Origin: Leucoraja erinacea
Lineage: Eukaryota
Assembly (NCBI RefSeq): GCF_028641065.1
Contig: NC_073408.1
Span: 10,044,001-10,108,000, forward strand
DNA: 64,000 nucleotides
Direction of reading: 5' to 3'
The number at the start of each line of letters is the position of its first letter. Position 1 is the first letter of the stretch. The position numbers and the translations under genes were made by a program. The notes beneath the pieces are model-generated. The model was not told the origin of the DNA and searched no databases. It saw only the letters and a list, made by a program, of their open reading frames with translations. Positions 35,200-37,474 of the stretch are shown here, piece by piece.

Positions 35200-35620
35200 G
35201 TACCTACCCGCGCCCCATTCATGTTGTGCTCACACACCCTCGCCCACTAATTCCCTCAACCTGACATCACACTCTCTCTGCTCCTTGCCTCCATTTGTCA
35301 TTGCATCCTACCACTCTTGCCCTCATCCCATCTCCTCAACCTTCCCCCTGCTGTCTCATCCCATCCCCTCTCACCCTCATCTTGTCCACCTGGCCCAAGC
35401 CTGTTCCCTTCAACAGGAACCTCACTTGGTTCCCCTCACACTCTGCACCAATGTTCACTCAATACCCCTCACTTCACATCTCTATCCCGCTCGCTCTTTC
35501 CCCATCACTTAGCCCTTCACCCTTCAGCCCTCTTGTTCTCGTCCCATCTCCTTTTGCTTCCCTTCATCTCATCCATCTTCCTGTCTCCTTTGTCTTCCTT
35601 TCCATTAGTGGGCTATTTCT
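35200..35620. repeat. Pyrimidine-rich low-complexity tract
   Basis: C/T-dominated sequence; generates Pro/Ser/Leu/His ORFs in all three plus frames. Confidence 0.75.
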
Positions 35621-35990
35621 TGTTGCTCTGGGCTGGCTGACTGGCCAACCACCTCCTTGAAGACCGTTGTCCAAACTCATGGCCACGATAGCGTCTGTAG
35701 GCCTGGAAAGTCTTCTTTGCTTCTCCTTACAGCACTACACTCCCAGTCACATCTCCTGTCACCAGGGTTCAGCCAGTGCACACGTACTTCAATCACCACA
35801 CCTGCCCCTGTGGAGAAATCTTCAGATGTTTCCTGCGGTCCCCACCCTCAGTTACACTCTTTCTCAACAACCCACTTATTTGTAAATTAAGATAATGAAG
35901 TGCTAGAAAAAGAATTGTTTTTATCACAAGAGTAGCATTCATTACCCATATTGAGCCAGTTTATTGAGCTTCTGCAATAATTCTGGAATG

Positions 35991-36018
35991 GTGGGTTCGG
36001 ATCCCACTTCTGACACCA
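35991..36018 (+). other. tRNA-Leu 3' fragment including CCA (extended primer-binding site, read on the minus strand)
   Basis: GTGGGTTCGGATCCCACTTCTGACACCA equals the vertebrate tRNA-Leu 3' 28 nt (GTGGGTTCGAATCCCACTTCTGACACCA, from memory) except for A58>G. Confidence 0.85.
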
Positions 36019-36227
36019 TGTAAAGAAGTCTCACCAACACATCGTGTCTTTACTAATAGTTTATTGATAGTTCACAAGCATTGCTGTTCTAGCTGTACGT
36101 GGTCTGTCACCGGAGCTAGAGAGAGAGAGAACTATGGGTGGGGAGGTTGCAATTATACATCTAATAAGGGGAGTGGTTAGCAGTGGTGAGGTCACTATGT
36201 TAAAGGCACATGCACTAGTCATCTACA
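36019..36227 (-). mobile_element. Single LTR of a Gypsy-like retrotransposon
   Basis: Minus strand TGTAGA...TTTACA termini, TATA-like TGTATAAT and AATAAA (36060-36065), immediately followed by the PBS TGGTGTCAGAAGTGGGAT. No internal domain follows. Confidence 0.85.
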
Positions 36228-37474
36228 GGTAATAAGGACAGAACATTCGTCTTCATGGATGGTTGATGGTGGGCACGGTCTTGATGGGCAAAAGGATTTG
36301 TTCCCGTGGTGTGTGTCTCCATGATGCAAAATCTTATCATTTTCATATTTCCCCTATTTCAATGTCGCAGTTCCGACATTGAAAATTAGGAATTTACTTT
36401 CGTCGAATTTTGGTTTTGTTTCAAGTGAATTTGCCAGTCTGCAGTAATGTTGGACAAATAGCCACACGGGCACAAGGGAAAGGTTAGTCTCCAAGTGGTC
36501 ACGATGTCAACCTGGAGAGTGCAAGAGGATCTGATCTGGTGATCAGAGGTGGTGAGAGGTGAAAAACATAGAGATTAACCTGAGATTATAGAACCCTTTG
36601 TGAATGTTGGCACTCTCTTTATGATATGCATAATTTAGTACAATTCAACACCTACAAAGATTAAACGTCTCGGTAACATATTGCCGAGCTAGTCATTGTA
36701 CCACCCACTGTTTTCATTACAAGGTAGACAATGGTTGCCTCCCTGAATTATAACACAGCAATCCAATCATAGGTTTTAAATTGCAACACAAAGTACAAGA
36801 GCCAAGCTTGAGCAGCTTACAGACATTATTGCAGCCCTTGAGATTCATTTAGATTCTTAAATCCATTTTGAGCTCTCTGTATTCATTTCATAATAGATAC
36901 GGTATCAAAGATAGTATACTTTCATTTTCAAATGTATTTTTTACAAGAGTCTGGTGCAGCCTTGAAATCAGTTTGCTTGATAAAAAGTGTCAATGCGTGG
37001 GGATTTTTAACTGTTTATCAAGAGACGGAGTACAGTGTAACTTATTTTTTAAATTATATTGGAAGAAAATTATCTGAACATAGATTGAAATCGCCAGATC
37101 TATTTCAAGCATTGGATAGAATAGATGATGGGAGGAGTGGGCAGGGAGGGGGGTGTGGTGGTGATGGGTGAATCTTGAAAGGGAACAGGTTATGCATGAA
37201 AACTTTATGGTCCATCCTGTAGGGTTGGGTCTTGTGAACTACTTCAACTTAAGACAATGGCTAGAACTTTAACCCAACCAAATCCTGAAGAGAAAGTTAA
37301 TAAGATGAGGGCCAATGCTTTGATAGGGGTTAAACAGTGAGTATAATGGCTTGGAACGCAAAATGCTGGAGTAACGCAGCGGGTCAGGCAACATCTCCGC
37401 AGGACATAGAAAGCATACTGTCGGATTGGACCACAGCTTAGTTTGGGAACAGCTTTGCCCAAGACCTCATTAAA

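Follow-up and report, generated by a model that had tools for sequence, protein, structure and literature searches.

How a single long terminal repeat (LTR) of a retrotransposon comes to stand directly beside a piece of tRNA, with no element behind it, is the question raised by a locus in the 64-kb stretch of Leucoraja erinacea DNA analysed here (G000:C32:10044001-10108000, below called the window, within a genome of 2.19 Gb). We propose, at a probability of about 0.78, that the locus consists of a Ty3/gypsy LTR and a DNA copy of mature tRNA-Leu, which would have arisen when reverse transcriptase (RT) read through, and misread, the 1-methyladenosine at position 58 (m1A58) of its primer and the normal second strand transfer did not follow. 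The locus, which was compared across four of 24 listed runs, X1 (organism A), X3 (B), X18 (E) and X20 (F), has the following features, the primer-binding site being abbreviated PBS.

36019..36227, minus strand: LTR of the Ty3/gypsy family, TG..CA, 209 bp, of 5' type, with no polypurine tract preceding it
36001..36018, minus strand: DNA copy of tRNA-Leu positions 76-59 including CCA, at the PBS position; the first 8 nt alone match the usual PBS of the family
35991..36000, minus strand: what is left of an originally longer tRNA-Leu extension, copied from positions 58-49; bases 35991-35992 are compatible with host or tRNA
36000..36000, plus strand: G at tRNA position 58 (A in the genes), a likely misincorporation opposite m1A58, also in run X18
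35990..35992, no strand: scar left by the loss of 27 bp (17 of host and 10 of tRNA, with 2-nt microhomology) after insertion; this assembly and run X1 have it, run X18 does not
36228..36232, no strand: host flank flush with the first LTR base and not repeated beyond the tRNA part; runs X3 and X20 have the site empty

Structure and alleles of the window locus

The 209-bp minus-strand LTR with TG..CA ends, described in an earlier note made from the sequence alone, is confirmed, and is 98.6% identical to its nearest copies. The adjoining tRNA part is 28 nt long, and its lone mismatch to the tRNA-Leu gene L096 is, as the note had it, the change of A58 to G at 36000. The locus has a whole LTR from its first base, followed by primer sequence that continues past position 58, as in an over-extended plus-strand strong-stop DNA. 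Neither a second LTR nor gag/pol, the latter also missing according to the note, occurs within the 64 kb, and no polypurine tract or element interior was found before the LTR. The host sequence on the tRNA side occurs once in the genome, and that on the LTR side has four short matches of 76-82% identity and no others. The 5 bp that precede the LTR do not reappear in the first 40 nt past the tRNA part. A search of Rfam over 35500-36500 gave chance matches only, and ARAGORN, which missed even an intron-containing gene among 10 loci given to it, predicted no tRNA there or in the window.

In runs X3 and X20, a contig links 35992 to 36228 via 18 host letters and represents the empty site. Run X1 has the insertion in the same form as the window, and run X18 has it with 27 extra letters behind 35990, of which 17 match the empty site and 10 extend the tRNA. 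The X18 copy has A at position 47d and shows 10 other differences, none of them at 36000, so that G58 is common to X18 and the window. The original window copy held 38-41 nt of tRNA, with a 3-nt microhomology to the host at the tRNA end; relative to the empty site 3 bp of target were lost and nothing was duplicated, in agreement with the earlier statement that no clean target duplication is visible. A later 27-bp deletion with 2-nt microhomology then shortened the tRNA part to 28 nt. The 10 nt of tRNA identity noted earlier beyond the PBS position do match positions 49-58, but their length was set by this deletion after insertion, and not by a stop in reverse transcription.

With an LTR end that is flush and a tRNA end that was repaired, the junctions agree equally well with one-ended integration and with capture at a break. 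The molecule may have entered as a free strong-stop DNA, or its far end may have been lost at or just after insertion. A solo LTR formed by recombination would likewise be a single LTR without coding sequence, but has a target duplication and no tRNA; the window copy has 28 nt of tRNA and, relative to the empty site, lacks a duplication, so that this origin is rejected for it, as had been argued before. True solo LTRs of the family do exist, with duplications of 4-5 bp (L014, L015, L022 and L030). The window copy is of a rarer, lone type within a large class. It is a dead by-product, for which no function is suggested, and the class as a whole is of more interest than this trimmed member.

Primer read-through in related copies

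A 25-nt tRNA motif with any base allowed at position 58 has 279 exact matches in the genome against 0 for the reversed control, and the tRNA match in the window is therefore not a chance one. A genome pattern anchored on CCA plus TG and on the variable arm, leaving positions 49-58 free, returned 320 LTR-adjacent tRNA-Leu copies reaching about position 46. The first 100 of these 320, from contigs 1-6 and belonging to 47 LTR clusters, are the 100 copies referred to below. At position 58 they have A in 50, T in 35, G in 9 and C in 6, whereas in the neighbouring non-CpG columns 50-55 only 18/600 cells (3%) differ; for 50/100 against 18/600, p is about 1e-48 with rows treated as independent. An enrichment of mismatches at this position, for which the earlier note proposed a search, is observed in these 100 copies. 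Removal of the duplicate-like copies L132, L138 and L166 leaves A49/T33/G9/C6 (non-A 48/97), and the bases at 58 are mixed inside single LTR clusters. The CpG columns of the copies show decay of 16-19%, as expected. Since non-A58 is found in 31/64 copies that have kept both CpGs and in 8/19 copies with LTR pairs at least 97% alike, CpG decay or age is rejected as the cause of the signal.

The genes seen offer no template for this variation. All 28 tRNA-Leu genes seen in pattern searches of one assembly have A58, and none has the G58 that had been considered as a possible source; they comprise 15 rows for tRNA-Leu(CAA), each with A58, C47d and an intron, and 13 tRNA-Leu(CAG) genes among 16 matches. 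Read-through past 58 with misincorporation, as claimed from the window alone, is supported by the mixed copies set against these uniform genes. A search for the spliced junction found three copies that cross it, all intron-free, and L120 is a fourth; because CCA is present and the intron is absent across the junction, it was mature tRNA that served as template. A cluster of seven tRNA-Leu(CAA) genes (L098-L104, G000:C12 at about 6.29-6.33 Mb) has A57 instead of G57. A57 is found in only 6 of the 100 retro-copies, and the data suggest that this gene cluster gives little of the primer pool.

Further along the primer, all 71 matches of a whole-genome pattern reaching U38 were examined, 12 of which are genes or gene remnants and 59 non-gene copies. 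Position 47d is C in 12/12 of the former, but T in 37, C in 13, A in 5 and G in 4 of the latter (non-C 46/59), on both isodecoder backgrounds, and as C47d precedes T the site is not a CpG. Position 58 in the same 59 copies reads A26/T24/G5/C4, with indels there in two rows, and varies independently of 47d (p=0.76). Past position 37, and across the spliced junction, only 2/59 copies run 10 nt further, and two more match for 3-4 nt. In the copies that cross the splice junction (L120, L232, L233 and L234), G37 is read as C, T, G and G, respectively. As for the end points of the 100 copies, 22 lie just 3' of 47d (3 of these, by eye, of Leu-CAG type), 19 at 45-46 and 29 at 37-40. The end of a hairpin may cause the accumulation at 45-46; ribose methylation at 44 is presumably another candidate.

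Such position-specific, mixed errors and stops, absent from the genes, are a signature of RNA modification. Judged from sequence, the pattern would fit m1A58, 3-methylcytidine at 47d (m3C47d) and 1-methylguanosine at 37 (m1G37) on the primer, all of which produce errors or stops in tRNA sequencing according to the available text of three studies (PMC11417395, PMC11897884, PMC11019740). The presence of m3C47d on tRNA-Leu(CAA), unreported so far, is a prediction for this lineage. In the LTR-side copies L193, L198 and L207, which are primed by Leu(CAG), the loop C of the gene is read as T, T and G, and this variable site matches the m3C site reported for tRNA-Leu(CAG).

Sister elements, parent family and strand transfer

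The sequence behind the tRNA copy was fetched over 4 kb for 77 of the 100 copies and over 1.5 kb for 23. A sense gag/pol match follows the tRNA in 69 copies, within 60 nt in 54, with landing residues from 28 to 1319, and a second LTR lies in the fetched flank of 53. Among these 53, an exact duplication of 5-6 bp was found in 25 and a weaker one in 9, with the boundary allowed to flex. A purine-rich run precedes the tRNA-bearing LTR in 2/86 cases and the second LTR in 30/31, which identifies the tRNA-bearing LTR as the 5' one. Many sisters accordingly have the jump, far LTR and duplication of a two-ended strand-transfer provirus, a combination that the window copy lacks. The 21 copies with neither a gag/pol match nor a second LTR include several antisense jumps, fold-backs and two-ended forms of minimal size; about six to ten of the 21, by eye, are lone like the window copy. 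We infer that most copies are products of a faulty second strand transfer. The earlier view of the locus as an integrated strong-stop intermediate was largely right about the read-through mechanism, but does not describe most of the class, which jumped into the interior and integrated two-ended.

The natural open reading frame of the full-length copy L091 has, by Pfam, RVT_1 at 542-695, RNase H at 761-891 and integrase at 1000-1156, i.e., the gypsy order, and the family has TG..CA LTRs, a polypurine tract before the 3' LTR and a short target duplication, all hallmarks of Ty3/gypsy elements. We take the Mag clade as a candidate label, assumed from the tRNA-Leu PBS and the 5-bp duplication. The usual PBS has 8 tRNA-matching bases followed by the element's own leader in 23 full-length copies; two full-length copies have a match of 14 or 18 nt. 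The 18 nt at 36001-36018, described earlier as a canonical tRNA-Leu PBS, do match the tRNA but are not the native site. In related families, 17 of 30 copies sampled from 149 with an exact 18-nt PBS read through, and by eye 11 of the same 30 jump after a stop at 18 nt, whereas 2 run into a native-type leader. Caution is advisable with such families, in which a perfect 18-nt PBS is often a faulty product and not the native primer site. In L092 and L079, compared with L091 and L094, the match of 14 or 18 nt stands ahead of the usual leader, and these longer matches are likely patches copied from the primer.

Several minor forms were seen among the sisters. The fold-back copies L009, L004, L072, L146, L161 and L170 have an inverted LTR piece after the tRNA copy, and in L009 two left ends face outward, with a 5-bp duplication. 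L057, L165, L166, L002 and L008 are minimal elements made up of an LTR, the tRNA copy and a second LTR reduced to its last few to ~30 bases, and they have a 5-bp duplication. L071 and L077 have one common deletion junction and are possibly a re-amplified derivative, and in L093 two LTR-PBS units follow each other in tandem, with almost identical jumps.

Proposed mechanism and competing explanations

These observations are compatible with the following route. The usual PBS match is only 8 nt, and normal transfer would be weak. During plus-strand synthesis the RT would overshoot m1A58 and misread it, with m3C47d and m1G37 as putative further marks on the primer; varying extension lengths, mixed bases at 58 and 47d, and the few copies past 37 are the observed basis of this step. 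Landing sites, second LTRs and duplications point to a subsequent template jump to scattered sites in gag/pol or the 3' LTR, after which integrase would act. At the window locus, the molecule may instead have been integrated at one end or captured at a break and completed by host repair, and was trimmed by the observed 27-bp deletion.

A different history after the same read-through origin appears unlikely, in which the window copy, at first an internally deleted element integrated at both ends and flanked by a 5-bp duplication, afterwards lost its interior, far LTR and duplication to a deletion. Two-ended forms are the majority (53/100), the far LTR sometimes amounts to a few bases only (L057, L165, L166), and the locus has already undergone one later deletion. 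Yet with 3 bp of host lost at the tRNA junction the break must fall within 8 bp of the element edge, which makes loss of the far end after a normal integration less likely, and neither filled allele (X18, X1) keeps an LTR tip or a duplication. It is considerably more doubtful that the variants at 58 and 47d derive from unseen tRNA gene variants or ordinary mutation after insertion, and not from RNA modification. Such an origin could invoke the gene list, drawn from pattern searches of one assembly, the loop T of one Leu-CAG gene and, for the window alone, the fact that A-to-G is a common transition. It is contradicted by A58 in all 28 genes, by the finding that every non-C match at 47d among those of the pattern reaching U38 is a non-gene copy, and by the occurrence of all three other bases at both sites, independently, with neighbours near 3% and young copies affected.

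A 3' LTR with an unremoved tRNA primer, the final plus strand having been copied into the tRNA, would give the same LTR-then-tRNA order, and retained-primer products are known from retroviral circle junctions. As the window LTR has no preceding polypurine tract or interior, and the purine-rich run separates tRNA-bearing LTRs (2/86) from true 3' LTRs (30/31), this explanation is largely refuted and its probability is minimal. Hardly any weight can be given either to an extension inherited in one family, or in an amplified non-autonomous derivative, with the interior then lost: shared junctions do exist (L071/L077, L128/L132, L137/L138 and L165/L166), but the extension is absent from the full-length copies, in which it had been proposed to look for it, and the 47 LTR clusters with differing lengths, bases and landing sites refute such inheritance for the bulk of the class.

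Some points weigh against m1A58 read-through as the origin of the locus and the class. The G in the window is a minority outcome (9/100) and a transition, and for this base a later mutation is possible. Older LTR pairs are more often non-A58 than young ones (17/25 against 8/19). In 23 metagenome loci with the same tRNA-Leu 3' half beside a TG start, where the LTR side has no similarity to the LTRs of this genome, T58 occurs in 2/14 distinct rows, probably from one insertion. The junction overlaps of the 9/100 copies alignable to imperfect reference copies are 0,0,0,1,1,1,1,2,7 nt (control mean 0.32), and with overlaps mostly of 0-2 nt, annealing by homology at the jump can at best be called possible. 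The assignments m1A58, m3C47d and m1G37 all derive from position and error pattern, and m3C47d in zebrafish is given for Leu-CAG and Ser, not for Leu-CAA, in the available text of PMC11417395. Furthermore, the longer allele is one contig of one run (X18), the equivalent loop position is T in 1/13 Leu-CAG genes, and tRNA genes absent from the assembly would escape the gene list.

Relation to known systems

In HIV-1, which is primed by tRNA-Lys3, plus-strand strong-stop synthesis ends at m1A58, and the accessible part of PMC8599865 calls over-extended DNA unable to complete synthesis and integrate; a minor product ends at the modified position 37 (PMC13191261, available part). In these HIV-1 accounts (PMC8599865, PMC13191261), as here, the primer 3' end is copied in plus-strand synthesis; minor products there pass 58 and halt at later modified bases, including 37. 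Unlike in HIV-1, where the stop at 58 gives the major product, 17/30 of the sampled copies with an 18-nt PBS read through, the usual PBS is 8 nt, and over-extended products are found in the germ line in hundreds of copies. HIV-1 has been the main basis of the debate on whether m1A58 is the true plus-strand stop in vivo. Pulsinelli and Temin reportedly described, in 1991, strand-transfer deletions in retroviral vectors with the 5' junction at the PBS, and tRNA-derived inserts are said to have been seen. That work reportedly used single-round vectors, whereas the present copies stem from endogenous gypsy elements, with 47 LTR clusters and position-specific error spectra.

Similarities are also noted with tRNA modification sequencing (PMC11417395, PMC11019740, PMC11897884, in the text available), where errors or stops occur at m1A58, m3C47d and m1G37, A-to-T exceeds A-to-G at m1A (there chemically reduced m1A), and C-to-T is the commonest change at m3C. 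By contrast, the enzyme that reads the tRNA here is that of the element itself, acting in vivo; its reads have become part of the genome, and the 47d signal is on Leu-CAA, whereas the same texts have it on Leu-CAG and Ser only. No report of such genomic records was found in the literature, with coverage excluding most subscription journals and supplements, and the available parts of PMC7472051, PMC12789967 and PMC9278108 contain nothing on genomic read-through copies. The m1A58 stop with over-extended by-products and strand-transfer deletions are known; what appears to be new is the genomic record of such errors.

From hundreds of independent germ-line events one can read where endogenous enzymes stop and which errors they make, and the class explains one source of internally deleted elements. 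We consider it reasonably probable, with less confidence than for the origin of the locus, that short-PBS gypsy elements routinely overshoot the primer and that the integrated errors form a germ-line record of tRNA modification, datable by LTR divergence and orthology, in which m1A58, m3C47d and m1G37 can be read from DNA; m3C47d is then predicted on tRNA-Leu(CAA), and m1A58 would be a leaky stop in vivo. If this is true, tRNA methylation could be inferred in species, and for past times, without RNA. In the metagenome loci mentioned above (L209-L231), the loop lacks C and does not vary at the corresponding site, and the splice junction is crossed in two rows, which are identical.
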